DNA of 64,000 nucleotides from a virus (IMGVR_UViG_3300037067_027602:92498-156497); one strand, 5' to 3'; shown: positions 8,905-30,700, counted from the first letter of the stretch. Made by a program: numbers and translations. The notes: generated by a model from the letters alone, not told the origin.

Positions 8905-11900
8905 ACGCCCCGAGGCAGGGCCACTGGCTTGTTTGCGTCCTTAATGAAAGTATACGCCCTGTCGCACCCGATCAGGACCGCGCTATACCTGTCCTTCCTA
9001 TGTTTCTTGCTGGGGGAATCCCAGTGCATGTTGCCACGCTTCTCCGTCATGGTGACCACGATGTTCTGTATCTCCCTCACCGTCTGGGATATCTCCGCCA
9101 TGGCGGCCAGCATCTCGGCGGACTGGTCCTGCGGCCCGTCCAGCAGGTCCTCGAGGCATGGCATCTGCAGCATCCCGGTCTCCAGCATCAGCTTCATGTT
9201 GTGGTTGGCGTCGTACAGCCAGCCGTAGTCGGAGAACTCCACCAGCTCAAGTATCCTCCTGCCTTTCAATTTCCTGTGCTCGTCGAAATCCCTCTGGAGG
9301 ATTATCTCCTCCCCTTGGGGGGTGTTCTTCTCGTCGGCCAGGAGATCCCGCACCGGCTGCCCGCCGCCGCCCGAGTCCATCGCTATCTCGTCGATGTTGT
9401 AGGCCTTCAACAACGCCCTCATCTGCGCGTGGACGTAGGGGTATGGCTTCTTGTGGAAGCTGTGCATGGCCCGGAACCTGACCAGCCTCCGGTCGAGCAG
9501 CACCTGGAATATGGCCATGGTGAAATTATCGCTCATCCGGGCGGGGTCGGCCGCCAGGATATTGACGACACCCCTTCTCTTCGGGAGGTACAAGGCGCAC
9601 CCGAACTCCCGATGGGACATGGAGGAGTCCAGCAAGGCCCGACTAAAAAACCCTTCGGTGTCGGTGGGGAAGAAGGAGCAGTTCCTGACCGTGGCGTACG
9701 GCAGCGAATAGCTGTGGTCGCTCTCCACGGAAAAATTGTGGACCCATCCCTCGAAATCGAACACCGACGATTTGCGAACTGGAACAGCGGTCCATCCAGC
9801 GGGGTCCCTGAGCCACGCCACGCCGGATCTCGCCACGTCGACGGCCTCAATGTCTCCCGAGGGGGAGCAGAAATTGTGGGACGCCGTGAACACGGCCTCC
9901 GGCCAATCTCCGAATTTCAACGACACGGCCTTCCCCGCATACCATCTGGAAAAAATTTTCCCGACGTCCCCCCATCTTCCCATATGGGTGAACACGGCGT
10001 CGCCGGGGACCACCATCTCCACCGGCTTCTCCCCCGCCATGGTCGTCACCGGCACCCCCGCCGCCAGACAGTATTCCATGCGGAACTCATTGTCCGCCAT
10101 GTCCCTTCTCGCCTCATCGATGCTCTCGAGGTTCATGAACCCCTCGGGCATGCGGGTGTACTCAAGGGCGCATAGCGCCCGGTTCTCGTCCATCATGAAG
10201 TTGTATGGGATCTGCCCTCCGGGGACGAGGTCGGCGTTTAGCGGGAAGCCCCTAAGCTCCACGGAGTCCGGGTTTTTCTTGGCCGACTCCAAAATCGCCT
10301 CCATATAGTTCTGCACCTTCTTCCAGAGGTGGTTGAACTGGTAGTACGCCGTGGAGGTGTAGACGATCTTGTTGTCGTGGAGCTGGCGGATCTTGTCTAT
10401 TTTCCCGGCGGCCAGGAGCTTCTTCTGCTCGGCCATCCAGCGGACGGACTCCATCGGGTTCTTGAAGGTGGCCATCATGCCGCGGATCACCAAATTCAGG
10501 ATGTCCTCTGGTATCTGCGCCGTCTCGTCCCCCAGGATGCAGTGGTAGCGCGCCCCGCGGATCTTCGTGCCGTCGCCGATCGGCAGCGCCTCGATGAGCG
10601 ACGCCCGGCAGTTCGGAGCGGTCTTAAACCGCACCTGGCACATGTCCGTGCCCCTGGTGGGGGCTTTGTCCACGAACCCGCGGAACTCCTTGGATATGGC
10701 GTAGAGGTTCTCCACCTCCGCGAACACGAACTTCGACTGGCGGAAGCCGGGGGCCACGATGCCCACTTTGTCCCCGGGGAAGAACATCCCGCGGAGGACG
10801 GTGAACAGCCCGTCCAGGAACGTGTTGTGGGAGATGAACCCGTTGGCTATGAAAGTGTGGGTCCCCGGGACGCACAGGTCGTACGTGTCCTGCGGGGGGA
10901 GGACGCCGGTCTCGGTCACCATGTCGAAGAAAAGCCCTCTGGAGATATATTCCCGCAGCCGTTCCCTGGCCTTCCCCCCGGGGATCTCCGACGCATCCAG
11001 CTCCACCAGCAAATTGGCAGCGTCGGCAGGCCTCGCCAAATCATGGACGTTGCGCTTTTTCTTGTAGACGAACTGGGTCGTGCATATCCGTTTCCTCTTG
11101 CGGAGGGAGAGCTCGTTGGCGGCGTCCTCCATCAACATCCCATACCCCGGCGACCTCACCCGGGAGGCCATGAAGACCGAAGCCAGCCCTCCCTCCGGGA
11201 GCATCACCGGCAGGCCGCGGGTGGCGGCCGCCTCCCCCATGGGGACCAGGAAATCGCCGTTCTGCCTGCCGCTCGCCGACACCAGCACCCCAAGTGAGGC
11301 GAACATGGCGGACAGCATCTTCTCCTCGGACGCCGTCCTCACCCTGACCAGCCTGGGCTGGCATTGGCTGGCCTTCGACATCGGGCAGCCGCAGGCGTCC
11401 AGCTTGCCGCAAAGGAAAGCCTCGGCCACGGCGGTCCCCCCGGTGAGGATAGACCCTGACGGTGGGAACCAGCCGCCGTCCTCCTGGCGCACGCCGAACC
11501 TGGACAGGAACCCGTCCACGTCCCCCCCTAGCATGACGGAGTACCCTCTCGACATCTTCTTGACGGCGGGGAGCAGGCCGTTGCGGTCCGCTATCTCGGC
11601 TGCCATCACGGCGGCCCCGGGCCATCTGGCGAAATACGAGCGGTGCCGGAAGTTCGCCCTCCTCAGCCCGGCTGACATCATCCCCAGGAGGTACGCCTCC
11701 TCCGCCCCTGTGGACCCGTCGCCCTCGAAACGGTACGACCCGGACAGATCCATCACCATCACGTCCCCGGGCCTGATGGAGGACATCTCCGCCCATTCCA
11801 AGCTCCCTTTTTTGCCAAGGGTCCTGACCCGGTGCTTGGCGACGCCGTCGTCCACCATCCCGAGCGCGGTCCTGGCCCAATGCACCGGCTCCGGGGCGTT

Positions 11901-12221
11901 GCGGTAGGTGTGGGAGGAGCGTTCGCTGCCGCCCTCCCCCTCGACCATGGCCGACATCTCCCTGAATCCGTGCGGCGCCCCGCCGTGCAGCGCCCCCAGG
12001 GTGGCATACCCGCCGCCGGTGAGGACGACGGTGTCCGGAAGCTTGCATTTCCCCGCGCCGCGGTTGAATATGATGATGACGTTGTTCCTGATCCACATGG
12101 CTCGCAGGGCTAGTTTCTGGGGGGAGGCCAGCTCCACCCCCAATATGTCGCGGGCGGCCTCGCAGGGCTTGTCCTTATACTCTTTTATCAAATCTATCTG
12201 GGCGGCGTTCAAATCAGACAT
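8889..12221 (-). CDS. terL: Terminase large subunit interrupted by two inteins
   Basis: Walker A RGAGK|T split by an intein, IRGARYHCILGDE Walker B, YTSTA motif, nuclease ADPAR...D and KDRYSA. The spliced product is 572 aa. Confidence 0.9.
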   Translation of the reverse strand: MSDLNAAQIDLIKEYKDKPCEAARDILGVELASPQKLALRAMWIRNNVIIIFNRGAGKCKLPDTVVLTGGGYATLGALHGGAPHGFREMSAMVEGEGGSERSSHTYRNAPEPVHWARTALGMVDDGVAKHRVRTLGKKGSLEWAEMSSIRPGDVMVMDLSGSYRFEGDGSTGAEEAYLLGMMSAGLRRANFRHRSYFARWPGAAVMAAEIADRNGLLPAVKKMSRGYSVMLGGDVDGFLSRFGVRQEDGGWFPPSGSILTGGTAVAEAFLCGKLDACGCPMSKASQCQPRLVRVRTASEEKMLSAMFASLGVLVSASGRQNGDFLVPMGEAAATRGLPVMLPEGGLASVFMASRVRSPGYGMLMEDAANELSLRKRKRICTTQFVYKKKRNVHDLARPADAANLLVELDASEIPGGKARERLREYISRGLFFDMVTETGVLPPQDTYDLCVPGTHTFIANGFISHNTFLDGLFTVLRGMFFPGDKVGIVAPGFRQSKFVFAEVENLYAISKEFRGFVDKAPTRGTDMCQVRFKTAPNCRASLIEALPIGDGTKIRGARYHCILGDETAQIPEDILNLVIRGMMATFKNPMESVRWMAEQKKLLAAGKIDKIRQLHDNKIVYTSTAYYQFNHLWKKVQNYMEAILESAKKNPDSVELRGFPLNADLVPGGQIPYNFMMDENRALCALEYTRMPEGFMNLESIDEARRDMADNEFRMEYCLAAGVPVTTMAGEKPVEMVVPGDAVFTHMGRWGDVGKIFSRWYAGKAVSLKFGDWPEAVFTASHNFCSPSGDIEAVDVARSGVAWLRDPAGWTAVPVRKSSVFDFEGWVHNFSVESDHSYSLPYATVRNCSFFPTDTEGFFSRALLDSSMSHREFGCALYLPKRRGVVNILAADPARMSDNFTMAIFQVLLDRRLVRFRAMHSFHKKPYPYVHAQMRALLKAYNIDEIAMDSGGGGQPVRDLLADEKNTPQGEEIILQRDFDEHRKLKGRRILELVEFSDYGWLYDANHNMKLMLETGMLQMPCLEDLLDGPQDQSAEMLAAMAEISQTVREIQNIVVTMTEKRGNMHWDSPSKKHRKDRYSAVLIGCDRAYTFIKDANKPVALPRGVWIKR
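9681..10070 (-). mobile_element. Intein 2 (130 aa mini-intein)
   Basis: Begins EY|CLAAGVPV, block B FTASHNF, ends VHNFSVESDHSYSLPYATVRN|C. Confidence 0.85.
10824..12047 (-). mobile_element. Intein 1 (408 aa) with degenerate LAGLIDADG endonuclease
   Basis: Begins CKLPDT right after GAGK and ends TYDLCVPGTHTFIANGFISHN|T. Internal AYLLGMMSAG and AFLCGKLDACG helices. Confidence 0.9.
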
Positions 12222-16653: not shown

Positions 16654-17922
16654 TTAGAACTCGACGCCAACCCGACCAGTTATAGGGTTGGGCTCCCCGG
16701 ACGGAATCACGCCGTCCCTGCCGCGTGTGCCGCCGTGAGGCGGTGCCAGCGGCGAGGCTGTGAGCCTGGGTGGCTTCACCTTCAGGAAAACGTCCTGGAG
16801 GTACGACCAGGATTCCAGCGTCAAAGTCTCCTTACCGGATCTTCCTTCCAGGTTCACCGAAGGCACTTTGCGCTTGGCAATCTTGTCCGTGAAAGTCTTG
16901 CGCTCCTTGATCCCCATGCCGCGCCGGGCGATGACCAGCCCGGCGGCGGTGTGGCGGTTCAAAGAGTACATGGCTTTGTATTTGAGGTTGCCGAGGATGG
17001 AGGTGTACGCCGGGTTTACTTCCACCAGCGGCACGCCCTCCTTCTCCGACCGTGACCTCAAAGATTCCAAAAGCTTGTCGTGAACGAAGTTGGACTTCAT
17101 CCGGTTGAATTTCTTGCCCTTGTCCTTTTTCTTCTTGTCCTTGCCGAAATCCAAATCCTCAATGACCAGCGTCTTGCCGGAGGCCTTCGCCACCCCGACA
17201 ACCTCTTTCGCCATCATCCGGACATCGTAAATTCGTTTGCCGTTGGATGCGAACTGGAGCCGCTGCCCGAGCAGGTATTTGTGCTTGAACAAGTTCCCGT
17301 GGCCGTCCACCTCCACGACGGCGAGGCCGTCGGGGTTGCAGTCGACGCCGATCGCTCCAGGGACTGTGGGTTGTTTGGCCCTCGGCTCGACGTTCCAACC
17401 GATCTTCACCTCGAACTTGTCGTCTTTTCGGACGATTCGGACATCATAACAAGTCAAGTCTAGATTGACGAACTTCTTTGGGATAAACAATTTCCCCTCC
17501 AACCATAGGCCGCGGTCGGATGGATCGTTAACTAACAACCTACCACCGTCCACCCGGATGTTCGGGTTGCCGTTCTTGGACTTGTCACCCATGGAATAGA
17601 GCTGCGAGTTGCGTTTGGCGTTCCAATCTTCTTTGTCGAGGTTGCCGGAGACCATGGCTTCCCACAGCTTCCTCCCGCCGAACAAAGCGTTATCGAAGAC
17701 CATCCCGGACGCCAGGGAACAAGCGTCCGAGACGTATCGCTGGTTCAGCTCGGGGTAGTAGTTCTTCTTGACATGAAGTTTGACATCGTTGCCGATAAGG
17801 TTGTGCTTGTGGTAGGCTTGATAGGCGGAGCGCACAGCGGAGCACTGGAGCTTCATAAGATTCAGCAATCTAAGTTCCGTCGGCTGATCGAACCAAACGA
17901 CGCCGTGTGCTATTCTACGCAT
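16654..17922 (-). CDS. tnpB: TnpB-family RNA-guided nuclease-like protein
   Basis: RuvC-I IGVDCN, RuvC-II VIEDL, VNPAYTS, C-terminal NRHTAAGLVIARRG; no CxxC zinc finger. Start taken at MRRIAHG by comparison with the second copy. Confidence 0.85.
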   Translation of the reverse strand: MRRIAHGVVWFDQPTELRLLNLMKLQCSAVRSAYQAYHKHNLIGNDVKLHVKKNYYPELNQRYVSDACSLASGMVFDNALFGGRKLWEAMVSGNLDKEDWNAKRNSQLYSMGDKSKNGNPNIRVDGGRLLVNDPSDRGLWLEGKLFIPKKFVNLDLTCYDVRIVRKDDKFEVKIGWNVEPRAKQPTVPGAIGVDCNPDGLAVVEVDGHGNLFKHKYLLGQRLQFASNGKRIYDVRMMAKEVVGVAKASGKTLVIEDLDFGKDKKKKDKGKKFNRMKSNFVHDKLLESLRSRSEKEGVPLVEVNPAYTSILGNLKYKAMYSLNRHTAAGLVIARRGMGIKERKTFTDKIAKRKVPSVNLEGRSGKETLTLESWSYLQDVFLKVKPPRLTASPLAPPHGGTRGRDGVIPSGEPNPITGRVGVEF

Positions 17923-18520
17923 CTTTGCGCTTCCTTCCGCCACGTTTTCCATATAATCTACCACTATAAGACGCTACCAACGAGACAATGTCTTCCGCAA
18001 ACTCCTCTTCAAATTCTTTGTTTTCTTTTTGTTCCAGAACGACCACCTCAACACCGAAGTTTCGACAATAAATTTGAAATGTCTCAAAACCGAATCGGGT
18101 GAGACGATCCTTGAATTCGACGACGACTCGGACGACGTCTGGACGGGCTATGCGTTCAAGCAGGCGCTTGAACTGTTTCCTACCATCGTTCAACCCCGAC
18201 CCAATCTCTTTGAATAGCTCAACAGTCCAACCGCTTTTGGCGCAATGCTCCAGTACCCGCCCTACTTGCCGTTCCAAATTTTCGGCTTGTTTCTGAGTGC
18301 TGGTACGACAATAACAGCAACTTACCGTGCGGTCTTTATCAACTTTCCCCTGGATGCGTCGGACTTCGCTTAAAGGAACCCGTCTATGACCACCTTCAGT
18401 CCGTATGGTTTGTATTTGCCCGGAGGCGTCCCATCGACGGAGCGTCCGAACATCCACCCCAAGTTCTCTTGAGGCCTTCGACAAAGTCAAATGCTCCGTC
18501 GTAGTGTTTTTGAAACTCAT
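17915..18520 (-). CDS. tnpA: IS607 transposase (MerR-like HTH plus serine recombinase)
   Basis: ASRELGVDVRTLRRWD...RTEGGHRR HTH; YCRTSTQKQ..LERQ; EIGSGLN; DRLTRFGF; SYSGRLYGKR. Confidence 0.92.
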   Translation of the reverse strand: MSFKNTTTEHLTLSKASRELGVDVRTLRRWDASGQIQTIRTEGGHRRVPLSEVRRIQGKVDKDRTVSCCYCRTSTQKQAENLERQVGRVLEHCAKSGWTVELFKEIGSGLNDGRKQFKRLLERIARPDVVRVVVEFKDRLTRFGFETFQIYCRNFGVEVVVLEQKENKEFEEEFAEDIVSLVASYSGRLYGKRGGRKRKDA

Positions 18521-18673: not shown

Positions 18674-18886
18674 CTAACAGCTAATCCTCCTTTTCTTGAA
18701 GTCCTCGACCACCTCGATCAAGGCGTCAACGGCGTCGCCGTAGAAGAAGATGTCGATGGAGTTGCCCTCCCCCTCCAGGGTGAGGACGTTGCATTCCGAC
18801 TCCCCGGGGTGCTTGGCAGGACTTTTGTCGAGCTTCGCCTCGACCGGCTTTTTGTGGAAGTGCATCATCACGCTTGTCATACTCAT
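18674..18886 (-). CDS. Small hypothetical protein with its 3' end supplied by the IS left end
   Basis: The last codons (ISC*) lie inside the IS end. Confidence 0.5.
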   Translation of the reverse strand: MSMTSVMMHFHKKPVEAKLDKSPAKHPGESECNVLTLEGEGNSIDIFFYGDAVDALIEVVEDFKKRRISC

Positions 18887-19623
18887 TTCCCTTTCGTCAA
18901 TCGGTTTTGCTCATACCTCGCCTTCGACTGCCCATGCGCCGGGATACAAACGTCCTTCGCCTCCCGGTTCATGCCGCAGCAGAGGCCGCACTCGAAGCAC
19001 AACTTGCCCTTCGTGATGTTGGGGCACATCACCTCCTCACCGACGTCGGGGCTCTCCTCCCCGCAAAGAATACGGAAAGTCCGCCATCCCAAAGCTTTGG
19101 CCTCCTCCCTCTCCGCCTCCGTGTCGCAGCTGGCCATGAGCCACCCCGCCAGATCCGGACGCTCCCTCCAGCGGCGGGTGTAGCCGGTCCAAGAGCCGGA
19201 GATGGCCATGATAGGCTCCAGGACGGCGTTGGGAAGGGCTCCCGGATCCCCGTATGCCCCGACCCTAACCCTCTTTCCTTTGAGGCTGGAGAGACATTCC
19301 AGGGGGGAGGGCGAGGGGTAGCCTTCCGCCATCAACTTCCTGCCGATGCCCTGCACCGACTTGGCGACATTGACGTAGCAAGTCCTGACGCCGTTGCCAG
19401 GCCCGCCCCTGTGGGGGCAGGAGCCGCAGACGGAGTCATGGGAGCCGTCCTTGATGGCGTCCATGGGCAATTTACCGTCGACCATGACGAAGATCTGCAC
19501 CATGGGGCCGGTCTTGGCGTTCTGGCTCGGCCTACCGACGCCCGTGGCGACGCAGACGATGGGCTTACCGTCGATCTCCGACGCCCCCCTCCAAAGTATG
19601 AATGAATCCAATTTTTTACGCAT
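18883..19623 (-). CDS. Cys-rich phage protein (gp88-like / radical-SAM-related)
   Basis: SQNAKTGPMVQ, CGSCPH...CY, VRVGAYGD and CP...CFECGLC...IPAHG motifs. Confidence 0.55.
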   Translation of the reverse strand: MRKKLDSFILWRGASEIDGKPIVCVATGVGRPSQNAKTGPMVQIFVMVDGKLPMDAIKDGSHDSVCGSCPHRGGPGNGVRTCYVNVAKSVQGIGRKLMAEGYPSPSPLECLSSLKGKRVRVGAYGDPGALPNAVLEPIMAISGSWTGYTRRWRERPDLAGWLMASCDTEAEREEAKALGWRTFRILCGEESPDVGEEVMCPNITKGKLCFECGLCCGMNREAKDVCIPAHGQSKARYEQNRLTKGK

Positions 19624-19846
19624 TCCGCTTTTCCTTCCTTTTCAATACCATGACGACGCCGGGCTCCGTCCCGGAACCGTTGGCGTAATGCACGGTGGCC
19701 TTCCCGAGGCCATATCTGATGTCCGCCCCCTTCAGGGGGATGTAGATCCCGCCCAGGGGCATCCGCCCGGGCGGGAACAGCTCGTCGATGACGGAGCACG
19801 CCTCGTCGGTGCCCTCCGGCATCTCAGCCTCCTCGACGGGCCTCAT
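19616..19846 (-). CDS. Hypothetical protein
   Basis: Overlapping start/stop codons with both neighbours. Confidence 0.5.
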   Translation of the reverse strand: MRPVEEAEMPEGTDEACSVIDELFPPGRMPLGGIYIPLKGADIRYGLGKATVHYANGSGTEPGVVMVLKRKEKRNA

Positions 19847-20181
19847 CCCCTCGCCCCCGCCGGCCGGAGGTCGGGTACAGCGTGGAGCGTGCCCCTCACG
19901 ATCCTCGACAGCCTGAACTGCCTCCAGCGCTTCGCCTTCTTGGGGCGTTTCCTGAGATAGGAGGACTTCGGCTCCAGCTTGGTGAGGATGTCCCTCTCCG
20001 CCTCCAGGGCGGCGTCCCTGCCCTCCACCAGGACCGAGCCGTCCTTGGCGCGCTTCATGTGGAAGTCCGTGAGCAGGACGGCCTGCGCCAGGAGCCCGCG
20101 CTCGCTAGACGGCGTCTCCGCCACGAAGCAGACCCCGACCCCGATCCTCGCGTAATGCCTCAACAATCTTTCCCTGGTCAT
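19843..20181 (-). CDS. WYL-like domain protein
   Basis: LVEGRD...WRQFRLSRI matches the R.FRLDRI hallmark of WYL/SH3-barrel domains. Confidence 0.5.
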   Translation of the reverse strand: MTRERLLRHYARIGVGVCFVAETPSSERGLLAQAVLLTDFHMKRAKDGSVLVEGRDAALEAERDILTKLEPKSSYLRKRPKKAKRWRQFRLSRIVRGTLHAVPDLRPAGARG

Positions 20182-20194
20182 CTCAACATCCCTT

Positions 20195-21244
20195 TCAGCC
20201 TATGATCCGGTATCCCGGATCGACATCGTAACCCTCCCCGGCCAGGTGAGCCCTGCCGGCGTCCGTGATGACCCTGCCCTGGGCCGTCCTCATAATGAAC
20301 CCGAGCCTCGTCAGCCAGGGCTCCACCACCGTGTCCACCGTGCGCTTGTCGGCGTCCACGGCGCGGCAGGCGGCGTCCAGCCCGACCGGGCGCTCCGACC
20401 TGTGCAGGAAACGGAGATAGGCCTGGTCCTGGCGGGTCAGCCCGCGCCTGTCGACCCCCTCCAAGGAGAACATCTTCTCCACCGCCACGGAGTTGGCCGT
20501 CTTCCCGCACCCGTCCGGCCTCGCCACCGCCATGATCCTCGCCAAGGCCGGCAGGAAAGTGGCCACGGCCAGCCGCGGCACGCCCCTGCTCCTGGCCGCC
20601 AGCATGGCGGGGACGCCGTCCGCCAGGGGTATGCCCATCTCCCTGGCGGCGTTGGAGACGATGGTCTCCATGTCGGCGTCGGAGTAGGCCTCGAACGTCA
20701 GCTTCTCCTGGAAGCGGTCGAGGAACGGCTTCGGGATCGACCCGGCGTAGTTCGTCGCCGCCACCATCGTGAAGTGCGGGAGCTTCACCGTCACCGTCTT
20801 GCTGCCGCCGTATGGGTTCATCTTCCTCATCGTGAGGACCCGGGACTCCAGGGCCGTGTGGAGCTGCTCCATCACGCCTTTGTCGAGCCTCTCGACCTCG
20901 TCAAGGAAGACTATGGGGAAACCGCAGCTCATCACCCCGGGCAGCCTCTCCATGTCGTCCCCATAGGCCTTGGCCGTGAGGGGGGCCATCCATTTGGCCA
21001 TGTCCTCCATGAACTTGCAGGTCTTTATCGACGCCGCGTTGTAGGGAAAAAAACGGTTCTCCGTGGAATTGGACAATATCCTCGCCAGCGTGGTTTTCCC
21101 CAGCCCCGGCGGGCCGTCCATCAAAATGTGCGGCATGGGCGAGTCCATCAGAAGCGACGCCTTGATTATCAGCGACACCTTCTCCTTGAAATGGGACTGC
21201 CCGACGAACCCGTCAAGAGTTTGCGGCCTGTAGGCTTCCATCAA
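20195..21244 (-). CDS. ruvB: RuvB-like AAA+ ATPase
   Basis: RPQTLDGFVGQ, GPPGLGKTTLA, FLDEVERL, FTMVAAT, DRF, SRGVPR, VVEPWL...MRTAQGR; full-length RuvB architecture. Confidence 0.9.
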   Translation of the reverse strand: MMEAYRPQTLDGFVGQSHFKEKVSLIIKASLLMDSPMPHILMDGPPGLGKTTLARILSNSTENRFFPYNAASIKTCKFMEDMAKWMAPLTAKAYGDDMERLPGVMSCGFPIVFLDEVERLDKGVMEQLHTALESRVLTMRKMNPYGGSKTVTVKLPHFTMVAATNYAGSIPKPFLDRFQEKLTFEAYSDADMETIVSNAAREMGIPLADGVPAMLAARSRGVPRLAVATFLPALARIMAVARPDGCGKTANSVAVEKMFSLEGVDRRGLTRQDQAYLRFLHRSERPVGLDAACRAVDADKRTVDTVVEPWLTRLGFIMRTAQGRVITDAGRAHLAGEGYDVDPGYRIIG

Positions 21245-21947
21245 ACACCTCTTTTCCTTTTTTGTTTCTGCCGTCCGGGGGGAAGTGGTACATCCACTGG
21301 TGCCCCATCGCTGCTATCCTGTCCATCACCTCGTCCGCCGTCCCCCCGCCCACCACCTCTAGGTGGCGCCTGGCGAGGATATGGAGGAACTGGTGGCCTT
21401 TCCTGGGGGAAACCGACGCCTTCGACCCGGCCATCACCAGCCGGATCACGCCTTTCCCCCCGCCGATGTCGGCCATGAACTCGTCATGGCAATCCCCGCC
21501 GGCCCCGTGGAGGAAGTACTCCCTCAGGTGCCAGATCTCGTGGAAGGCCATGTACTCCGGCGGGAACTGCTGCCCCCCGGAAAACCAGGAGTCGCCGGCC
21601 ACCAAGAATTTCCTCCACCCCCGGGAGAGGGACCCGGAGGTCATCCCGAAAGAGGAGAACAGGCACAACGCCCTGGGGTTGGCCCTCGTCCACGAGGCCA
21701 CTTTCTCCGCCATGGCGGGGATGGAGACGTCGAAAGTCGCCAGCAAGGCGGACTCCGCCGTGCGGTGGACCTCCACAAGGGGCGCCGCTAGGGTCTCATC
21801 GAGGGTCATCGCCCTGGACACGGGCCTCAGAGCCTTCGTCCATAGCTTCCTCGCCCTCCTGGACACCCCCTCGGCCACGAGCATCCTCATGGGGGAGCCC
21901 TCCATGGGCGGTGGCAGCTCCACTTCGTCAAATTTCAGGTCATCCAC
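21213..21947 (-). CDS. Hypothetical protein with HEXXH metallopeptidase-like motif
   Basis: AFHEIWHL...DEFMAD; overlaps both the RT and RuvB genes. Confidence 0.55.
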   Translation of the reverse strand: MDDLKFDEVELPPPMEGSPMRMLVAEGVSRRARKLWTKALRPVSRAMTLDETLAAPLVEVHRTAESALLATFDVSIPAMAEKVASWTRANPRALCLFSSFGMTSGSLSRGWRKFLVAGDSWFSGGQQFPPEYMAFHEIWHLREYFLHGAGGDCHDEFMADIGGGKGVIRLVMAGSKASVSPRKGHQFLHILARRHLEVVGGGTADEVMDRIAAMGHQWMYHFPPDGRNKKGKEVFDGSLQAANS

Positions 21948-23094
21948 GGCGCGCCTCCTTCAACTCCGCGAGTTTTCGTTTGAACCACGACCCCTGGGCC
22001 TTGTCGGCCCCGTCGATGTAGGCGACCTCCCCGGACAGCTTCATCATGTCCCCGCCACCTTTGGTGATGGCGTTGTGGAGGGCGGCCCTGATTTTGCGCC
22101 TCCGCCACTTCGGGACGGTCGCCCGCCCCTTCTCCACCACGCTCAGCCCGACGACCCGCTGGGCGCCGCCCCTGGCCATGACGGTGGTCTTCTTGCGGTT
22201 GACCACCAGACCGTGCCGTGAGGCCAGCCCCCCCGCCACGCCCATCAGCTTGCCGCATTCCTTCCAGTCCCATGACATCGTGATGTCGTCGGCGTACCTG
22301 GTGTAGGACGCGTCCAGCCTAATCGCAGCCCTGGACAGATTCTCGTCGAAGGCGTACATGGCGAGGTTGGAGAGGGCCGGGCTCGCCGGGCTCCCCTGAG
22401 GCAGCCGGCCGTCGAGGAGGCAGAGCTCCAGCGCGGCGCCGATCCATTTGACGTTGGAGGCGTCGACGCAGCGCCAAAGGCCGCGCCACACCATCCTCCT
22501 GGAGACTGACGGGAAGAAATCCTTGAGGTCCATCTTGACGACCGTCCTTTTCCCGGCGTGGGGGACGGCGCAAGTCCTCGTCGACCTCCCGGGAACGAAG
22601 CCGTGGGCCGCCTCGTGGGGGATGGACTTATGGTAGACTACCATGTCGAGGAACTTCCTCTGGAACTCCGCCAGCGGCTTGCACGGGGCCTCGACCGTCC
22701 GCCTGCCGCCGGACTTCTTGGGGATGGTGAATACCCTGTACGCTTTCCTTCCCGACTCCAGCAGGGATCCGAGAACAAGCGGGCACATGTCGAACGCCCT
22801 GGCCAGGGAATTCAGGTCGTGCGGGCGGGACACTTTCACCAGGCATGCCTCCGGCGGCAAGTCCATGTCGTAGTCCAGAACGCCGGCCAGCCCCAGGCGA
22901 ATCAACTCGGCGTAGCCGCGGTTCGGGATCATCATCCCGCCGGGGAGGCCGGACAGGATCTCCCCCATCCCATGGCCGCCGGCCGGGGCGGGATCCGAGG
23001 GGCAAGCCCCCATGAACAAGTGGATGTAATCCTCCACGAAACCTAGCTCCCTCATCAACGCCGCCCTGGCCCTGTCATCAGTTCTTGAACTCAT
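21940..23094 (-). CDS. Retron-type reverse transcriptase
   Basis: IPKKSGGRR.VEAP, AHGF, CAVPH (retron NAxxH position), KMDLKDFFPSV, LPQGSPASPALSN, YTRYADDITMS, QRVVGLSV (retron VTG position). No maturase or HNH domain. Confidence 0.9.
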   Translation of the reverse strand: MSSRTDDRARAALMRELGFVEDYIHLFMGACPSDPAPAGGHGMGEILSGLPGGMMIPNRGYAELIRLGLAGVLDYDMDLPPEACLVKVSRPHDLNSLARAFDMCPLVLGSLLESGRKAYRVFTIPKKSGGRRTVEAPCKPLAEFQRKFLDMVVYHKSIPHEAAHGFVPGRSTRTCAVPHAGKRTVVKMDLKDFFPSVSRRMVWRGLWRCVDASNVKWIGAALELCLLDGRLPQGSPASPALSNLAMYAFDENLSRAAIRLDASYTRYADDITMSWDWKECGKLMGVAGGLASRHGLVVNRKKTTVMARGGAQRVVGLSVVEKGRATVPKWRRRKIRAALHNAITKGGGDMMKLSGEVAYIDGADKAQGSWFKRKLAELKEARRG

Positions 23095-23422
23095 CCAGCA
23101 CCTCCTCGACGCTCATTCCGACGAAATACTTGTCAAGCAGCCCGGGCACGTCCACGAACTCCAGCCCCGCCTCCCTGGCGAGCCTGTCCAGCTCCTTGTC
23201 CGGATTGTCCGCCCATTCCGGCGGGAGCGTCCCGCCGTCGGGGAGCTTCCTCGTCCGCCGCTCGTTCGACTCCTGCATCAGGCGGAACTTCAACCGCGTC
23301 GAATACTCCCTCCAATTCTCGCCCGGCAACGGCGGCACCCGTCTGAACCAGAACCTGTCCCCGCCGGGGAGCACCCTGACGGCGTAATCCGCCGGACGGC
23401 CGCCGGCGGACGTCACCGACAC
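23078..23422 (-). CDS. Hypothetical protein immediately upstream of the RT
   Basis: Overlaps the RT start. Its own start is ambiguous: the GGAGGAG-preceded ATG is in the frame of 23133..23648. Confidence 0.5.
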   Translation of the reverse strand: MSVTSAGGRPADYAVRVLPGGDRFWFRRVPPLPGENWREYSTRLKFRLMQESNERRTRKLPDGGTLPPEWADNPDKELDRLAREAGLEFVDVPGLLDKYFVGMSVEEVLDEFKN

Positions 23423-23644
23423 CCATGCAGGAACGGGCTCCTCCGCTAGTGTAGCCCAAAGCTTGTCGGAGAGTCCAGAATCCGCAATATGATCCCTTCC
23501 CGGGCTGGTATATCTTCGCCATAGCGAATTCCCGGGGAACGTTACTGTCGTCCGTGGCGACCGCCACGATGACTCTGGTTAAATTCTTCCTATTGATGTT
23601 TTTGGGATCGACCCTCCCATATTTCCCGTTCCAAGTAGCTTTCA

Positions 23645-24139
23645 TCAAACAGCCCTCCTTTCTTCAAATTCCAGTTTCCTCGCGTCCAGGCAGAACATGT
23701 CCTGGCAGACGTAGCCTTTCTCCTCGAAATACAGGAACGAGGGAGGGGTGTTCCCCTTGAACTCGTTCCTGAAACCCTCCAGGCACGGCCCTTTGAACAG
23801 GGGATAGCCGCCGTAGGCCCTGGAGAAAGGGTAGCCGTCCATCGCCCAGCCCGTGCCGTCCAGACGGACGACCTCGAAGCCCTCGACCGTTTGGAGCTTC
23901 TCCGCGAAGTAGGACGCCTCGACGCCCCAACGGTTGACGATCTCGACCGCTTCGTCGACCTTGGGGAGGCAAGCCTCGGAGATGTCCATGAAAAAGTTGG
24001 GGGCGACGGGGCACAACCCCTCGTCCAGCATGGACTCCCGGTCGTAATAGGCCATGCGGTTCCACGCGAAGCCGCCGCAATCCATGTCGGGGCGGGCCCT
24101 CGCCAGCCTGTCGTTGTAGTAGTGTTTGAAGAAACGCAT
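23645..24139 (-). CDS. Hypothetical protein
   Basis: 164 aa, coupled to neighbours. Confidence 0.55.
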   Translation of the reverse strand: MRFFKHYYNDRLARARPDMDCGGFAWNRMAYYDRESMLDEGLCPVAPNFFMDISEACLPKVDEAVEIVNRWGVEASYFAEKLQTVEGFEVVRLDGTGWAMDGYPFSRAYGGYPLFKGPCLEGFRNEFKGNTPPSFLYFEEKGYVCQDMFCLDARKLEFEERRAV

Positions 24140-24142
24140 GGC

Positions 24143-25219
24143 CTAGCCTTTCCTTATTTTTTCGAGGATAATCTTAATCGCGTCAATATAGACGCCAGCG
24201 TCCTCCAACGGGTTGTGGTTGCCACCGGACGCGAAGAATTCCCCGCCCCAAGAAATCATGGCGTCCGGGGTCAACCCGCAGGAGACGTAGCTAGGGTAGA
24301 GGACGACCCCTTTCCCCTGTCCCCAATGCTGCAGGTCCGCGCCCTCATGCTGGCGGTCCTTCTCCGATATGCAAGGGCGTCCACCCTCGCCTTTCCCCCA
24401 AATAGGCGAGTCGAGGGGAGGGGCTTCCTTTTGTAGCTCCCCCGCCAGCCGCATCAACTCCCCGGCCTTCTCCGGGGTGAGATCGTAAACAGGCATGATC
24501 GACTTCCTTTTCCTCGCGTTTTTGCGGAGCTGCCCAACTAGCTTTTTGGAGACGGTGACGATCTCTTTCCATGGAAGGCCGACGGACAGGCTGGGGGTCT
24601 TCAGGATCTCCAACTCCTCCCTGGACGGGGCGTCCACCCGCATGCCGTCGACGACGATCTGCTTTGAGTAGGACGGGGACTCATCCCCGAACGAGCCGAT
24701 CGTGGCGTGGATCCCGTCGAGGTTGATCTCGTCCCCTTTGTCCGTGGGCGAGTGGAAGGCGGGCATGGATGCGTGGGAGTGGACGCTGCCCGCCACCATG
24801 GAGCCCTCCGGCATCCCTCCGATGGCGGTGCTTCTCCTTGACCATACCCCGTTCATCACCAAAATGGACGGGAGGGACAGGTCATAGCTAGCGGACGCCG
24901 GCGTCACCACCTGCCTGGGGACGACATATGACCAATCGCCGTCCTCCGTCACCCTCAAAACCACCACGCACTCGCACCCCAGGTCGCGGTGGACCTCCCT
25001 GAACAGGGACATCACGCTCCTGAGCAGCCAGCCCGGGAGGGAGATGCCGGGGCCGGGCTTGACGGAGGGCATGGCCTCGAAGCGCGGGGCGGCCGGGACG
25101 ACCGCCTCGAACAGCCTCGTCACACGCTTGACGAAAGTGCCGTTTCCGGCCACCAGGGGAACGCCGGCCGGGGCGGCGTCCAAAGCCGCCTGGTCGGGGA
25201 TGTAAATAGGCTCCCGCAT
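24143..25219 (-). CDS. JAB/MPN+ metallopeptidase (prokaryotic deubiquitinase-like)
   Basis: ECVVVL, VVPRQVVT, GSVHSHASMPAFHSPTDKGDE (HxH..S..D), GIHATIG. Confidence 0.85.
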   Translation of the reverse strand: MREPIYIPDQAALDAAPAGVPLVAGNGTFVKRVTRLFEAVVPAAPRFEAMPSVKPGPGISLPGWLLRSVMSLFREVHRDLGCECVVVLRVTEDGDWSYVVPRQVVTPASASYDLSLPSILVMNGVWSRRSTAIGGMPEGSMVAGSVHSHASMPAFHSPTDKGDEINLDGIHATIGSFGDESPSYSKQIVVDGMRVDAPSREELEILKTPSLSVGLPWKEIVTVSKKLVGQLRKNARKRKSIMPVYDLTPEKAGELMRLAGELQKEAPPLDSPIWGKGEGGRPCISEKDRQHEGADLQHWGQGKGVVLYPSYVSCGLTPDAMISWGGEFFASGGNHNPLEDAGVYIDAIKIILEKIRKG

Positions 25220-25249
25220 TTGGGGCCTCCTGTTTTAAAGGGGTGGAGA

Positions 25250-25819
25250 TTAGAGGGAGACGCACCGCGGCTCGTTGGCGGCCGTGGCCGGTTTGCCGAA
25301 CTTCTGGGGGTACTTGGCCACGAGCCCGGCGAAGGACGCCAGGCGCTCGTACTTGACGCCAAGGGCGAACAAGGGGTTGGCGGCCGAGGCTTTCTCCCAC
25401 TCGGCCAGGTCTTTCATCCTGGGGTCTAGCCCGGTCTTGCTGAGGTCGTTGTTGAAGGCGGACTCAAGGAACCTGCCGGGGATCAGCCCGGCGGACTCCC
25501 ACACCTTCTCGCTCAGCTTCCCCCGGGACTCGACCTGCCCGAAGCAGATCCTGCCGTCGTGATGGACGTTCGGGAGCGGCGGGAGGAAGAGATCGTCGGC
25601 CCCGGACTCCAGGGGCTCGACCGTGCATGTGACATGGACGGGGTCCAAGACCCCGCTTTCCCCGACGGGGACGAAGAACTGGAGAAAGGGGAAAGACAGT
25701 TTGAACCGCCGCGCCCCTTGCGTTATGACCACGTTCCTCGGCCTCCGCTCGATGACGAAGAGGACCGCGCCGCCCCCCTCAAGGGAGAAGGCGCAGTCGA
25801 CGGGCAGCCGATCGAACAC
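25250..25819 (-). CDS. Prokaryotic E2-like conjugating protein (family D type)
   Basis: LSFPFLQF, LPPLPNVHHDGRICFG (candidate catalytic Cys), FLESAFNNDL. Confidence 0.75.
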   Translation of the reverse strand: MFDRLPVDCAFSLEGGGAVLFVIERRPRNVVITQGARRFKLSFPFLQFFVPVGESGVLDPVHVTCTVEPLESGADDLFLPPLPNVHHDGRICFGQVESRGKLSEKVWESAGLIPGRFLESAFNNDLSKTGLDPRMKDLAEWEKASAANPLFALGVKYERLASFAGLVAKYPQKFGKPATAANEPRCVSL

Positions 25820-25822
25820 GGC

Positions 25823-26209
25823 TCAGCCCTTGACGCCGGAGACCTTGACGAACTCCAGGAGATCGCCGCCCTTGAGGATGTAGTCCTCCCCCACTTGCAT
25901 GGGCTCCATGCCCAGGCTTGGGTTGGAGACCATCGTCACCTCGCCACCGTAGCAGCCGACGGACTCGCGGACGGCGGGGTCGTTGGCCAGGGAGGAGACC
26001 GTCCTACCGACAAGCCCGTTGTCCTTGAGCTTGTTGGTCGCGCATTGGACGGTGGCCCACTCCGGCTCGGGGCCGGCGGCGACCTCCGGGCGCGCCAAGC
26101 GGGCGGACTCCGCCGCGCGCACCGCGTCCATGATGCTTTCGACCCTCTCACGCTCCTCGTTCTCGTCCTGCTCGTGCCCCAGATACAGATCCTGTTCCTC
26201 GCTCATCAT
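25823..26209 (-). CDS. Ubiquitin-like (beta-grasp) protein with acidic N-terminal extension
   Basis: C-terminal DYILKGGDLLEFVKVSGVKG ends in Gly; directly upstream of E2 and JAB. Start placed at 26209 after an AAAAGGGA RBS. Confidence 0.7.
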   Translation of the reverse strand: MMSEEQDLYLGHEQDENEERERVESIMDAVRAAESARLARPEVAAGPEPEWATVQCATNKLKDNGLVGRTVSSLANDPAVRESVGCYGGEVTMVSNPSLGMEPMQVGEDYILKGGDLLEFVKVSGVKG

Positions 26210-26253
26210 CGTTCCCTTTTCCTTTTTCGCCGGCGGAACCATTCCGCCGGCCC

Positions 26254-26487
26254 TCAAACCTTTTTCCCGACGACCACGTCGGCCGCGGGAAAGTGCCTCA
26301 ACTTCAGAACTTTTCCCCGGCGCCACAACAATAGCACGCGGCGCCCGTCTTTGTCAAGCCTTGGAAGAGCGTCCGTGTACCATGTCCTCCGCCTTCCCTC
26401 CTTCGTGTACATGTCGCAATCCACACCGATGTCGAGGAACGCCTTGAACGGGTGGCGCATGGCGTCCGGGAGCTTGCCCCTAGACAT
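26254..26487 (-). CDS. Small basic hypothetical protein
   Basis: ATG overlaps the stop of 26480..27388. Confidence 0.45.
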   Translation of the reverse strand: MSRGKLPDAMRHPFKAFLDIGVDCDMYTKEGRRRTWYTDALPRLDKDGRRVLLLWRRGKVLKLRHFPAADVVVGKKV

Positions 26488-27388
26488 CGGCGGACACCAT
26501 CCCGGAGGCTTCGCGCAACATCCTTTTGTCGGACTCATGCAACCCCAACAGGAAGTTCTCCCACCAGATCCTCTGCCGCCCATGGACAAAGGGCAGGACA
26601 TCGTCCGGATCCAAGGGATAACGCTTGTCGGCCATCTCCCGCAGGACGTCTATCTCCGCGTCGCAGCCACAGACCAACCTCGCCAGCCTCTTGGAGCCAT
26701 GGCCGTCCCCGTCGAGGCTCTCCATGGCGGAATGGATTAGCATCGCGTTCTCCTCCATGAACGCGGAAACTTCCGGATTGGTGAAGTCCCGCTCCTCGAA
26801 GGCCTTGTTGGCGGCGCCCGCGATCGCCGGCCACTCCTCCGCCTTCCTGGACGGGGAGTCAATCCCCGGTTGTTTTTTCCTCATCCAGTCCCGGAAAATC
26901 CCGCCCAGGTTCGAGAGCTCCTGCGCGCCGTCGATGGCGTAGACGAAGCCCTTGTCCACGGCGGCGGGCTCCTTGGCGGGAGGCGGGACGGGGCCGCAGA
27001 CTTTCTCCATGGCGATAGGCTCTGTCTCGGCGAGGCCGCCCTTCGGGGTGACGACCGCCACGAAGAAGGTCTCCGCGAGGCAGACCGCCACCGCGGAGGC
27101 CACCGCCTCGTCGCCGTCGAAGACGACGCCGACCTCCCTGATCTCCGGGACGGGGTCGCCGTCGAGGACGGGCTCCAGGCCGAACTCCGCCGGGTCGCAG
27201 GCCTTGAGGTTGACGGTCCCTTTGGGAAGGACGACGCCCATGGACTCCAGGGAGGGGCAGGAGATCTTCGCCGCGGCGAACGCCGCCCGGGCGGAGGACA
27301 GCAGCTTCTTGACGTCGGGGGTGATCTCCACCTGGACGACGTACTCATGGTCTTCGACCAGAGAGGGAGAGACAAAATATTTACCCAT
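26480..27388 (-). CDS. Hypothetical protein, first gene downstream of the ncRNA pair
   Basis: 302 aa, with a GAAGG RBS ~30 nt after ncRNA unit B. Confidence 0.6.
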   Translation of the reverse strand: MGKYFVSPSLVEDHEYVVQVEITPDVKKLLSSARAAFAAAKISCPSLESMGVVLPKGTVNLKACDPAEFGLEPVLDGDPVPEIREVGVVFDGDEAVASAVAVCLAETFFVAVVTPKGGLAETEPIAMEKVCGPVPPPAKEPAAVDKGFVYAIDGAQELSNLGGIFRDWMRKKQPGIDSPSRKAEEWPAIAGAANKAFEERDFTNPEVSAFMEENAMLIHSAMESLDGDGHGSKRLARLVCGCDAEIDVLREMADKRYPLDPDDVLPFVHGRQRIWWENFLLGLHESDKRMLREASGMVSADV

Positions 27389-27418
27389 GATAAACCTTCG
27401 TTTTTGGGGTGGAAAGGC

Positions 27419-27520
27419 CTCCTCCGGGCACTGATCGAAGAACCTGTTCTTCGATACCCTCCAACCAGGACAACCGTCCCGGATCCAGGGCGCTCCGCCC
27501 CGTGTAGCTGCCCGGAGGAG
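27419..27520 (-). ncRNA. Putative retron-like msr/msd ncRNA, unit B (102 nt)
   Basis: Perfect 12-bp terminal inverted repeat (27419-27430/27509-27520), G right after the 5' arm, two small stem-loops, TGGAGG, then a 10-bp hairpin at 27434-27455. Confidence 0.7.
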
Positions 27521-27532
27521 ACCAAAAAAGAA

Positions 27533-27718
27533 CCCCCTCCCCCCTGAATGGCGGACGGATCGCTAAGTGAGGGCTTGTGATACTTTTTCCGGTGTTTTTC
27601 GCCGAAGGCCCGGCAAAAGTATCTCAAGCTTGAGCTTAGTGATACGTACGGCGTCTTCCTCCACGCCGAAGGCAACCTTTCGGCGGGGGCGTTGCGCCCC
27701 CTGTGCCGGGGGAGGGGG
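27533..27718 (-). ncRNA. Putative retron-like msr/msd ncRNA, unit A (186 nt)
   Basis: 11-bp terminal inverted repeat (27533-27543/27708-27718), G after the 5' arm, stem-loops at 27685-27701 and 27664-27685, TGGAGG, then an 85-nt imperfect hairpin at 27559-27643. Confidence 0.78.
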
Positions 27719-27725
27719 AATAAAA

Positions 27726-30700
27726 TCAGACGGAGCCCGGGGCGACCCAGGCCACGAGTGCCAGGACGGTCTCGCCGTCGGGGGCGACGCCGGCGAACAG
27801 CTCGGGCTCGATGTCGTCGGGGACGCCTCTCCTGTCGGTCAACGACACCAGGAGCTCCTTGTTGCGGCGGCTGGGGAGCAATTTCAGGAAATCCTCGTTC
27901 CCTCCCTGCAGCTCGTGGTAGACCTCCATGGTCATGCGGTAGAGCTTGCAGTCGTCGTTGTGGATGTCAATCTCCAGTTTGCCGTTCGGGTCGTTGTCCT
28001 GCCCGAGCCAGAACACGTCCCGGTCGTACAGGGAGAGGACTCCGCCGCCCTCGGGGGTGCTGTCGGTGGGACCGAACGAGTAGGTCTCTCCCAGGTCGTC
28101 GACCATGTCGTCCTCGCTTTGGTTGAACGCCGCCCCGTCGTAGTTGGCCAGAACTTCGGCGAGATCCTCGAAGAAACGTCTGCGGGTATGGGGGTCGCCA
28201 AGCCACTCGCTATCCGGCGCGCCCATAAGCTGGATGGCCTGCAATAGCTCGGTCTCAGTAAGGTGCTTGCTCATGATGATCTCCGTTCAGTTGTTGAAAA
28301 AGTTGTTGTCGAGCTGAAGGATACCCTCCTTCAGGATCTTGATCTCCACGGGCACCCCCGAGTGGCCGTTGGCGCAAAAGCGCATCTTCCCGCCGCAGAC
28401 CCTGATCTGGAGATCGACTAGGGATTCCTTTGCGCCGCAAATCTCGCGGAGACGGATGGCCGCCCCCACCCCGACGCCCGAGGTCTCGTAAGTGTCTGTC
28501 TCATACCCCACCGGGGCATCATCCACGAGCACCCCGTGCTGGCCGCACATGGCGGACACCGTGACGGAACGGAGCTCGGGGAGGAGCTTCTTGCCCTCGC
28601 CCTCCAGGAAGGCGTCGGCGCGCTCCACAACATCCAGGAGCTTGTGGTTCAGCTCGACCTCAAAGGCCGCCTCGCAGTCGCTGGCATTGGTCAACAGGTA
28701 CATCTCAAGCCTCCTTTTTCCACGGGGGAGCCCCGCATTTTGAGTTCCAACTGGTGCAACCCTTCTCGTCGGCCGGATGCTCCATCTCGACATCCTCGGC
28801 TAGGCGCCAAAATTGTTGACGCTCGATAAACGCGTGGATGGAAATGAACGACACCACGAAACTTTTACGCCCCTGGTTGTTCCCCACGTCATGCAGCGTG
28901 CCATAGCCCCGTTGCCCCTTGCGGTCATTGGGGATCTCGGGGAAGGACACGATGCTGTTCTTCCAGCGGTCGATGTTGGAGGCGTCGATCCCGTCCATCC
29001 AGAGCCGTCCGTTCCCGGGCTCCATGGTCAACCCTCCTCGATGGTGACGCCGTCGGCGTTCTTGATGTCGTCGTAGGTCTCCGTCGCGACATGGCCGCAG
29101 CTGTCGCACTGCGCCCGGAGGAACGCCTCCAGATCGGTGGTCTCGGTCATGTCGACAGGCTCCAAATCCAGCCGCTCCTCGGACAGCTCAATCACGGAGA
29201 ACTCGCGGCACACTTGCCGGGTGAAGCTCCTGTAGACCATCTCCAGGCGGTCGCAGCCGCACTCGGGGCACTTGAAGCGCAGCGTCTTGTTTTTCTCCTT
29301 ACCAGTGGCCTTCTCGACCTCTTCGATGAGATTCCTGGCCATGACCGCGGTCAGATCCCCGTCGCCACCAGAGGCGTGGCGATGGGCATCAACATGGGGC
29401 AGGCATTGCTTCAACGCCGCCAGCAGTTTCGAGACCATTTCCTGTTTGTTGTCCATGGTTCAACCCTCCCAGTTCAAGTTGTCGTAACGCCTCCGCAAGT
29501 CTTCGACCAGGTCGGACAGCTCCTTGCGGACGTCGCAAGGCTCCAGAACCTCGAACTCCGGGTCGAGAAGAGCTTTCACGTCGTCCACCGCGAACTCCGC
29601 CCCCTCCCTCAGCCCGGGCTCGATCTCGGGCATGCTGACCAGCACCAGACTCACAGGGGCGGACGCTAACACGGACACTCCCGTGTTCTCGCTGTCGTCC
29701 AGCACATAGACCTCCGGGATCTGGCCTCCGGCGACGAGCTTGTCCAGGGTCTCCTTGGTGAACACCTTCTCCCGGAGCCCCTCCTCGAAACGCTTGTTGA
29801 GCCAGGGGACGCAGCTGTATGGAACAGGAGCGGAGCGGTCGCCCCAGGTGTACCAGTGAACGACGTCCCTGTGGATTCCGGCGAGAGCCGCGTAGCAGGG
29901 GGAGACCTCCCTGTTTCTGAAGACTAAACCGCATTCTCGGTGGATGGCCTTCTCGCTCTCCACGGGGGTTGCGTGGATGTCCCAGACGGCCAAGGGGTCC
30001 GGGTTGGTGACACGGTGGTCGAGCTCGACATGGAACAGCTGCTCCCCGCCGTCCACCTTGTTTTGCAATTTGATGAACATGGTCAAACCTCCTTCGCGAT
30101 TTTCTCGAACTCGGCGTCCTCGATGGCGCAGGTCTCTCCCATCCCGTCGTCGTCGTGGAAGCGGAACCAGACGAAGGCGCCGTCGAAAGCCATCTCGACC
30201 GAGCCGTTCTTGGCCTGCCAGTTCCAAACATGGTCCTTCTCCCGGGGGTATTTGACCCAGTCGCGGGGGCCGAACTCGGACTTCGGCAGACGTTCCCCGC
30301 AAAGGGTGGCCTGGACGCCTTCGTCCGTGGTCATCGCCATCATGGTAACGGCGGGCTCCGACCTGGACTCGAACGCCAGCTTCATCCGGCGATGGGTTTC
30401 CGCCAAGGCCTTGCCGACCATGACTTTCATGGTCTCCTCAGCCCCGGAAGCCCTATCGAGAACCTTGAGATGCAACATGGTGGGCATGATAAGCCACTCC
30501 TTTGTTTTGTTATTCTGGTTCCACCAAATCCGTCCCATCCCCCTCGTCGTAGGGAGGGGCCTTGCTCCTGGCCATGAAGATGGACTGCTTTTTCCTGGAG
30601 CAGAGCCCTATCTTCTGCCGCATGTCCATCCCGTCCCAGATCTCCTTCCTGGCCTCGTCCTGCAACCGGAGATAGCGGTCGTCGTCGAGGACGGGGTAAT

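Follow-up and report, generated by a model that had tools for sequence, protein, structure and literature searches.

Why should a large phage carry a retron-type reverse transcriptase (RT) among genes for ubiquitin-like protein tagging, with its likely template RNAs more than four kilobases away, and do these genes belong together? Retrons are known as bacterial anti-phage systems, in which one template RNA lies beside an RT and a toxic effector. The locus that raises the question is found in IMGVR_UViG_3300037067_027602:92498-156497, a stretch of 64,000 nucleotides (nt) that was analysed at full length and is called the window here. It is the final 64 kb of a linear IMG/VR phage record of 156,497 bp with 62% GC and an estimated completeness of 89%, and it contains terminase, portal and virion genes. 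The original prediction had named a remote pair of non-coding RNAs (ncRNAs), a ubiquitin-like protein (Ubl), an E2-like protein, a JAB peptidase, a retron RT, a HExxH protein, RuvB and a WYL-like protein, and all of these were found where it had placed them, on the minus strand, to which all window coordinates below refer. From our analyses, we consider it reasonably likely that these genes make up a single conserved phage module centred on a retron, in which the RT and its multicopy single-stranded DNA (msDNA), together with the WYL and RuvB-like proteins, would control or direct protein-modifying enzymes in a conflict role.

The RT (21940..23094) matches RVT_1 with an E-value of 5e-22, has an N-terminal extension of about 90 amino acids (aa) and contains the catalytic motif YADD. 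The retron RT models of PADLOC recognise it at 215-133 bits, and its best twelve matches among solved structures are all retron RTs. It shows a clear fit to no retron type, as the type XIII model (215 bits) leads several others (~190 bits) by only about 20 bits; the NCBIfam model retron_St85_RT gives 187.9 bits, below its cut-off of 235, and the best matches are 35-43% identical, with no close relative. In region X the motif NAxxH reads CAVPH and in region Y the motif VTG reads VVG, so that H and G are kept while N and T are replaced. H and G are the residues called most conserved in these motifs (Mestre et al. 2020, PMC7736814), and in the RT of a related phage, L112, the two regions read TCAKAH and VTG. 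PADLOC models of retron effectors matched none of the neighbours of the RT. There is no gap on either side of the RT gene, which bears out the earlier remark that there is no room for an adjacent ncRNA. The reported overlap between the RT and HExxH genes depends on the start that is chosen: with the longest open reading frame (ORF) the genes overlap by 8 nt, and with the start behind the 230-aa database product a gap of 34 nt separates them.

The candidate template RNAs lie upstream, in a 337-nt gap (27389-27725) that holds two structured units. Unit A (27530..27722) has a minimum free energy (MFE) of -94.5 kcal/mol and a folding z-score of -6.4. Its arms, a1 CCCCCUCCCCC (27718-27708) and a2 GGGGGAGGGGG (27543-27533), form a perfect inverted repeat of 11 nt, and the unit presents two msr-like hairpins, then a long imperfect msd-like hairpin with 41-nt arms and then a U-run. 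Unit B (27405..27535; MFE -69.9 kcal/mol, folding z-score -4.4) is closed by a perfect 12-nt repeat that can be extended to a 15-nt stem (27523-27509 with 27430-27416); its msd-like hairpin is short (9 bp) and its arms differ from those of unit A. In both units a G stands directly after a1 and another directly before a2, and 'two opposing G residues' have been described as a feature of retron ncRNAs (Mestre et al. 2020, PMC7736814). The units have a scaffold in common, GGGGCG-NNN-CGCCC, a second hairpin with a GGUU loop, UGGAGG and then the msd-like hairpin. Retron ncRNA anatomy, comprising the a1/a2 repeats, msr and msd hairpins and opposing G residues, is present in both, which supports the proposal of displaced template RNAs about 4.3 kb from the RT. 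Because the units share the msr-like scaffold, the part an RT would be expected to recognise, but differ in their arms and msd, two different msDNAs would be expected, one long and one short. The whole phage record holds only these two copies of the scaffold and only one RT gene. Rfam had no match for either unit, and a scan of viral contigs with the scaffold motif gave chance hits only. Two other interpretations of this region were rejected. The gap was considered as a gene, and the open frame that crosses it was judged non-coding because its GC content at third codon positions (GC3) is 0.61, compared with 0.85-0.90 in real genes. The msd sequences were considered as donors for the phage's own genes, and only chance matches of 12-14 nt were found in the phage genome.

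Downstream of the RT gene follows a trio of genes. The first (21213..21947) encodes a protein whose HExxH motif reads HEIWH. Its predicted fold is zincin-like and its C-terminal stretch ankyrin-like, and HExxH is conserved without exception across five homologues. The AlphaFold2 (AF2) model, with a predicted local distance difference test (pLDDT) score of 72.6, matches the catalytic domain of anthrax lethal factor at Z 7.4 and Wss1 at Z 6.0; the best structural matches are zincins throughout, with Z values of 7.4-5, a range that the search tool calls middling. A HMMER search of 1.84 billion representatives returned one real homologue, more copies were present in related phages, and word-seeded protein searches returned self-matches only for both this protein and the JAB protein. 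Residues ~147-199 show weak ankyrin similarity (designed ankyrins at E 0.07; a 765-aa repeat protein with HMMER). The second gene (20195..21244) encodes a full-length RuvB-like AAA+ ATPase with RuvB_N, lid and RuvB_C domains and intact Walker A, Walker B and sensor motifs. It matches solved RuvB structures at E 5e-42, is only ~32% identical to cellular RuvB and 36-37% identical to the copies at the same position in two related phages, G001 and G002, and scores 215.7 bits with the NCBIfam RuvB equivalog, below the cut-off of 282. No RuvA_N domain was found in the phage record.

The third gene of the trio (19843..20181) encodes a stand-alone WYL-domain protein of 112 aa, identified by a fold search with its AF2 model (pLDDT 74.7). 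The best nine matches obtained with VIA-align are WYL domains of PafBC, BrxR, CapW and DriD, at Z 9.1-7.1 and with a root-mean-square deviation of ~2.3 Å over 75-78 residues; generic Sm folds scored lower (Z 6.6). The label 'WYL-like' is thereby justified. The protein also has the motif FRLSRI, which resembles R-x-F-R-L-x-R-I, and gave no match to Pfam WYL at E<=0.1. As it has neither helix-turn-helix (HTH) nor WCX domains, it is not a transcription factor of the CapW/DriD/BrxR/PafBC kind. A WYL homologue follows RuvB in G001, G002 and L112.

Between the RNA pair and the RT lies the putative tagging kit. The Ubl (25823..26209) consists of an acidic N-terminal part and one beta-grasp domain and ends in SGVKG. 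Its homologues in G001 and G002 are ThiS-family proteins with two and three domains; every repeat in them terminates in SGxKG, and their ThiS-family scores are above the cut-off. The E2-like protein (25250..25819) is of the Prok-E2_D type, with 23.5 bits in Pfam against a cut-off of 25; its motif PN..G-x-x-C, with the catalytic Cys, is invariant in four phages, and the homologue of another phage, L074, reaches 33 bits with Prok-E2_D. The JAB/JAMM peptidase (24143..25219) has a C-terminal extension and an exact H-x-H-x7-S-x2-D motif, and its residues E83, H147, H149, S157 and D160 are invariant in six homologues. It scores 18 bits with Pfam Prok-JAB, which is sub-cut-off, and its nearest NCBIfam model is PRTRC_A. 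PADLOC defence models gave no match for the Ubl, E2 or JAB, all three of which fall slightly short of the Pfam cut-offs in this phage.

The conservation of these genes as a block was revealed by an alignment search with the RT, which retrieved 79 viral loci; pattern scans of viral contigs with single proteins (the RT, the RuvB-like protein and a 246-aa protein encoded downstream) found nothing, and among these searches the RT alignment alone reached relatives. G001 (177.8 kb, 30% GC) and G002 (181 kb, 42% GC) are complete genomes with terminal repeats and carry the genes in the order Ubl, E2, a small gene, JAB, E1 (ThiF), three to four unknown genes, RT, HExxH, RuvB-like and WYL. L112 (175.4 kb, 47% GC), found by a scan started from JAB, is a fourth phage with the same block. 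The block proteins are 27-37% identical across the phages, with a GC content of 30-47% in the relatives and 62% here. The phage studied here (G000), G001 and G002 share ~50 collinear core genes at 25-54% identity. Here the block adjoins the structural genes and shares their strand, whereas in G001 and G002 it is remote from them and lies on the other strand; its flanking genes are not common to the phages, and few other accessory genes are shared. Since the block has been relocated and inverted relative to the core and its surroundings have been replaced, we conclude that it has been kept as a unit. The suspicion that the linkage could simply be phage mosaicism thus loses ground, as the gene order is conserved in three other phages and the block has moved as one piece; judged from these genomes, the linkage appears to be more than mere mosaicism. 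The original prediction had suggested looking at the neighbourhoods of RT relatives, and those of the closest viral relatives do contain conserved neighbours, contrary to what it had said would refute it, with HExxH, RuvB-like and WYL genes following the RT in four phages.

Retron-like RNAs accompany the block in the relatives as well. G001 has three to four retron-like units just after the RuvB and WYL genes, and G002 has at least one. Among the units of G001 there is a tRNA with a CUA anticodon (L008:11584-11659), an amber suppressor that ARAGORN calls tRNA-Pyl, adjoined by a small zinc-ribbon ORF (L008:11260-11508). This tRNA hints at stop-codon recoding in this 30%-GC relative.

In other lineages, the RT occurs with parts of the tagging kit in differing arrangements, namely RT-E2-x-x-JAB-E1 in L074, JAB-E1-RT in L029, E2-JAB-E1-x-RT in L035 and E1-RT in L036. 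E1 is placed after JAB in G001, G002, L112, L074, L029 and L035. In a tree of 80 viral RTs, the window RT groups (Shimodaira-Hasegawa-like approximate likelihood ratio test, SH-aLRT, 93) with that of L074 and with an 11-member clade of ~50-kb phages, and in all 11 of the latter ThiF is encoded just upstream of the RT. Tandem retron-like units follow the RT in these E1-RT phages, three in L053 and two each in L076, L034, L060 and L069; their z-scores extend to -16, their junctions read a1-UAGAA and UAUAAUAG-a2, and their msr scaffolds are common while arms and msd vary. At L053:8818-9494 and L076:2283-2886, in ~50-kb terminal-repeat phages with the arrangement E1-RT-RNAs, the msd hairpins measure ~140 nt and z-scores range from -10 to -16. 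In its strict form, the GAA/UAG junction motif seen in the units of L053 and L076 does not extend to all lineages. As tandem units accompany this RT family in the relatives, the pair in the window is typical of the family, and what is unusual is where it lies, 4.3 kb from the RT and at the far end of the block. We also considered the RT as a substrate of E1, in the way that cGAS/DncV-like nucleotidyltransferases (CD-NTases) are substrates of Cap2; this was dropped, because RT C-termini in the E1-linked loci have no consistent Gly end.

These neighbourhoods shift the emphasis among the candidate partners. The HExxH, RuvB-like and WYL products, first named as the partners of the RT, do follow it in four phages, but this trio is confined to one lineage, and the kit with E1 is the most widespread companion of the RT family. 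The Ubl, E2 and JAB genes had been taken as merely lying in between, a view that we abandon, since an E1-bearing kit recurs beside this RT family across phages. The kit also occurs by itself: about 50 loci (L114-L164 and L168, on viral contigs of 14-268 kb, mostly >100 kb) encode a long JAB (~570 aa) followed by E1 and then a small Ubl, and none has an RT less than 9 kb away. Judging from its gene content, JAB-E1-Ubl appears to be an independent tagging kit that is widespread among phages. Co-option of such a free-standing kit by a retron would fit these arrangements, by analogy with the type I-A retrons that co-opted Septu.

In the module that we favour, the single RT would serve both tandem template RNAs and produce two msDNAs, and the WYL and RuvB-like proteins would hold the single-stranded msDNA. 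WYL domains bind single-stranded DNA in CapW and DriD. The RT-msDNA complex would be the sensing or directing arm, and the tagging kit and the zincin the output arm, an arrangement that would mirror bacterial retrons, in which msDNA holds an effector in check. Synthesis of msDNA and contacts between the parts are presumed in this scheme, as is its purpose, which would probably be conflict, either with rival phages or with host defences. With regard to the RuvB-like protein, the C-terminal winged helix of RuvB is the DNA-binding part in the effectors of type III-A3/A4 retrons (Mestre et al. 2020, PMC7736814). A more specific version, which we consider rather unlikely, is that the msDNAs act as programmable baits or guides: proteins that bind a given hairpin, for example DNA-binding proteins of host defences or rival phages, would be tagged by the Ubl kit and removed by a DNA-dependent zincin and the RuvB-like motor, with one template RNA per target class. 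Nucleic acids would then direct the targeting of proteins, and it would be understandable why the scaffold stays constant in the tandem arrays while the hairpins vary.

Several observations weigh against a single module. The RNA pair is not contiguous with the RT, being 4.3 kb away with seven or eight genes between, and it stands at the opposite end of the block from the RNAs in G001 and G002. A promoter-like site and the U-run interrupt the supposed operon. The E2 and JAB proteins of the window score below the Pfam cut-offs, and one gene between JAB and RT is frame-shifted. No E1 was found in the 89%-complete record, either with Pfam ThiF at E<=1 or with a profile of the relatives' E1. Its absence could mean that the tagging arm is decaying, that an E1 of the host is used or that the gene lies in the unsequenced ~11%. 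The slot of the relatives' E1 is occupied by a gene for a 164-aa protein (23645..24139, GC3 0.85), which has no family match and no similarity to the relatives' E1 profile; an E1 remnant between JAB and RT was also searched for with that profile, and none was found. An RT is encoded within 9 kb at only eight of 61 related phage JAB loci. The trio was found in four phages that are related to one another, and part of the synteny may be plain inheritance. Finally, 46 of the 95 same-strand gene pairs in this phage overlap or lie <=15 nt apart; tight packing is therefore the rule in this genome, says little about linkage and was not counted as evidence for it.

These points bear most directly on the explanation that the retron is real but independent of the tagging kit and of the HExxH/RuvB/WYL trio, each of these being a module of its own within one inherited accessory island. 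The JAB-E1-Ubl kit is found alone in ~50 large-phage loci, the four trio phages share a collinear core, tight packing is normal in this phage and a promoter-like site separates the 302-aa gene from the Ubl gene, all of which such an island would accommodate. We nevertheless regard it as unlikely, since in G001 and G002 the block has changed place and orientation with respect to the core as one unit and has different accessory genes around it, and since the adjacency of the RT to E1, JAB or E2 recurs in differing orders (RT-E2-JAB-E1, JAB-E1-RT and E1-RT).

A role in phage DNA metabolism would be a different solution, with msDNA serving as primer or recombination substrate and the RuvB-like motor migrating branched DNA. 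The full-length ATPase with its intact Walker A, Walker B and sensor motifs would suit this role, as would the retention of the block over deep divergence in lytic-looking large phages, but it is made improbable by the absence of RuvA from the record and by msd sequences without homology elsewhere in the phage genome, and it leaves the tagging kit and the zincin unexplained. That the two structured RNAs serve some other function, for instance as terminators or regulatory RNAs, while the RT uses another template, is very improbable despite their distance of 4.3 kb from the RT, the terminator-like U-run of unit A and the lack of an Rfam match, because both units have full retron anatomy with opposing G residues, the same tandem units accompany the RT family in many phages, and the record holds one RT and the scaffold nowhere else. 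We thus retain the conserved retron-centred module as our preferred explanation.

The remaining genes of the region were also surveyed. Nearly every window gene from 1 to 46 kb is carried by the minus strand. Upstream of the RNA gap is a gene for a 182-aa protein (27726-28274), and downstream of it a gene for a 302-aa protein of unknown function (26480..27388; GC3 0.88) that has no match in Pfam, PADLOC or PHROG and no counterpart in the related phages. A 270-nt gap (26210..26479) then contains a 10-bp hairpin and a sigma-70-like promoter (26357-26328), the latter by consensus match only; the small ORF formerly placed here lies within this gap and is doubtful. Three unknown genes had been counted between JAB and RT, and sliding GC3 resolves them instead into the 164-aa gene and one gene (23078..23648) whose coding frame switches near 23430, beside GC-rich palindromes (23377-23421). 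The switch may represent a frameshift, perhaps a programmed one, a sequencing or assembly error, two short genes or decay.

The WYL gene is followed by three further closely spaced genes and then by an IS607-like element. A gene just beyond the WYL gene, translationally coupled to its neighbours, encodes a Cys-rich 246-aa protein (18883-19623), which matches the uncharacterised family phrog_2554 (E 2e-62) and has no counterpart near the block of G001 or G002. The IS607-like pair (16654-18520), between the virion genes and the genes downstream of the block, comprises, judged solely from the translations, a serine recombinase gene (17915-18520) that overlaps a TnpB-like ORF of 436 aa (16654-17964), and may have contributed to local rearrangement. 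Among the virion-side genes, a terminase-like ORF of 1110 aa (8889-12221) is matched by terminase large-subunit profiles and by relatives at residues ~420-718 only, and may contain large insertions or fused domains.

The association described here is, as far as the literature covered shows, without precedent: no publication was found that connects retrons with RuvB or with ubiquitin-like proteins, the genomic study of Ubl systems by Iyer et al. 2006 and the Bil paper included, in a search from which subscription journals were mostly absent. What distinguishes this retron is that it is owned by the phage, that it has several templates per RT and that it is tied to a ubiquitin-like tagging kit, to which one lineage adds a RuvB-like motor, a predicted zincin and a WYL protein that would bind single-stranded DNA. 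If the parts work together, msDNA would be seen to govern protein modification in a manner not known before, and two systems that have so far been read as host defences would gain a role on the phage side. Arrays of several templates served by compact RTs may also be of interest for retron genome editing.

Among known systems, the ubiquitination-like BilABCD operons act against phages (Chambers et al., bioRxiv 10.1101/2023.09.26.559546). Their gene order is Ubl-E2-JAB/deubiquitinase (DUB)-E1, and their Ubls end in a conserved Gly and possess 1-3 beta-grasp domains or are extended at the N-terminus. The kit of the window and its relatives resembles them in gene order, in the C-terminal Gly and domain make-up of the Ubl, and in a JAMM peptidase that, from its motif, could trim poly-Ubl; it differs in being phage-encoded, in the lack of a PADLOC match, in its Prok-E2_D-type E2, in being joined to a retron and, in the window, in the absence of E1. 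The nearest NCBIfam models come from the PRTRC (ParB-related, ThiF-related cassette) systems of plasmids and integrative elements: JAB is closest to PRTRC_A, E2 to PRTRC_B and the E1 of the relatives to PRTRC_ThiF, with up to 100.7 bits. The scores of 21-101 bits fall short of the cut-offs of 102-145 and the setting is a phage, and among the proteins scanned there was no match to PRTRC models for other cassette parts. The 112-aa protein shares the WYL fold with CapW, DriD, BrxR and PafBC, and is unlike them in standing alone, without HTH or WCX domains and without a Pfam WYL match. Wss1 and SPRTN are DNA-dependent metalloproteases that work with the AAA+ ATPase Cdc48/p97 and with SUMO or ubiquitin. 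The block recalls them by analogy only, in that a small HExxH zincin (Wss1 at Z 6.0) is encoded next to an AAA+ motor, with a Ubl system and a DNA source close by; the structural similarity is in the middling range, other zincins match equally well, and the ATPase is RuvB-like and not Cdc48-like.

With retrons the window shares a retron-clade RT, the a1/a2 arms, msr and msd hairpins and opposing G residues of the RNAs, accessory genes that travel with the RT, and the modular co-option of an existing system, as in type I-A with Septu. The original prediction knew of no described retron type with such a gene set, and indeed Table 1 of Mestre et al. (2020, PMC7736814) lists 13 types with neither a Ubl kit nor a HExxH protein, a full RuvB or a WYL protein. 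The retron of the window further departs from these in being carried by a large phage, in having at least two tandem template RNAs for its RT, and in keeping these RNAs 4.3 kb from the enzyme that would use them.

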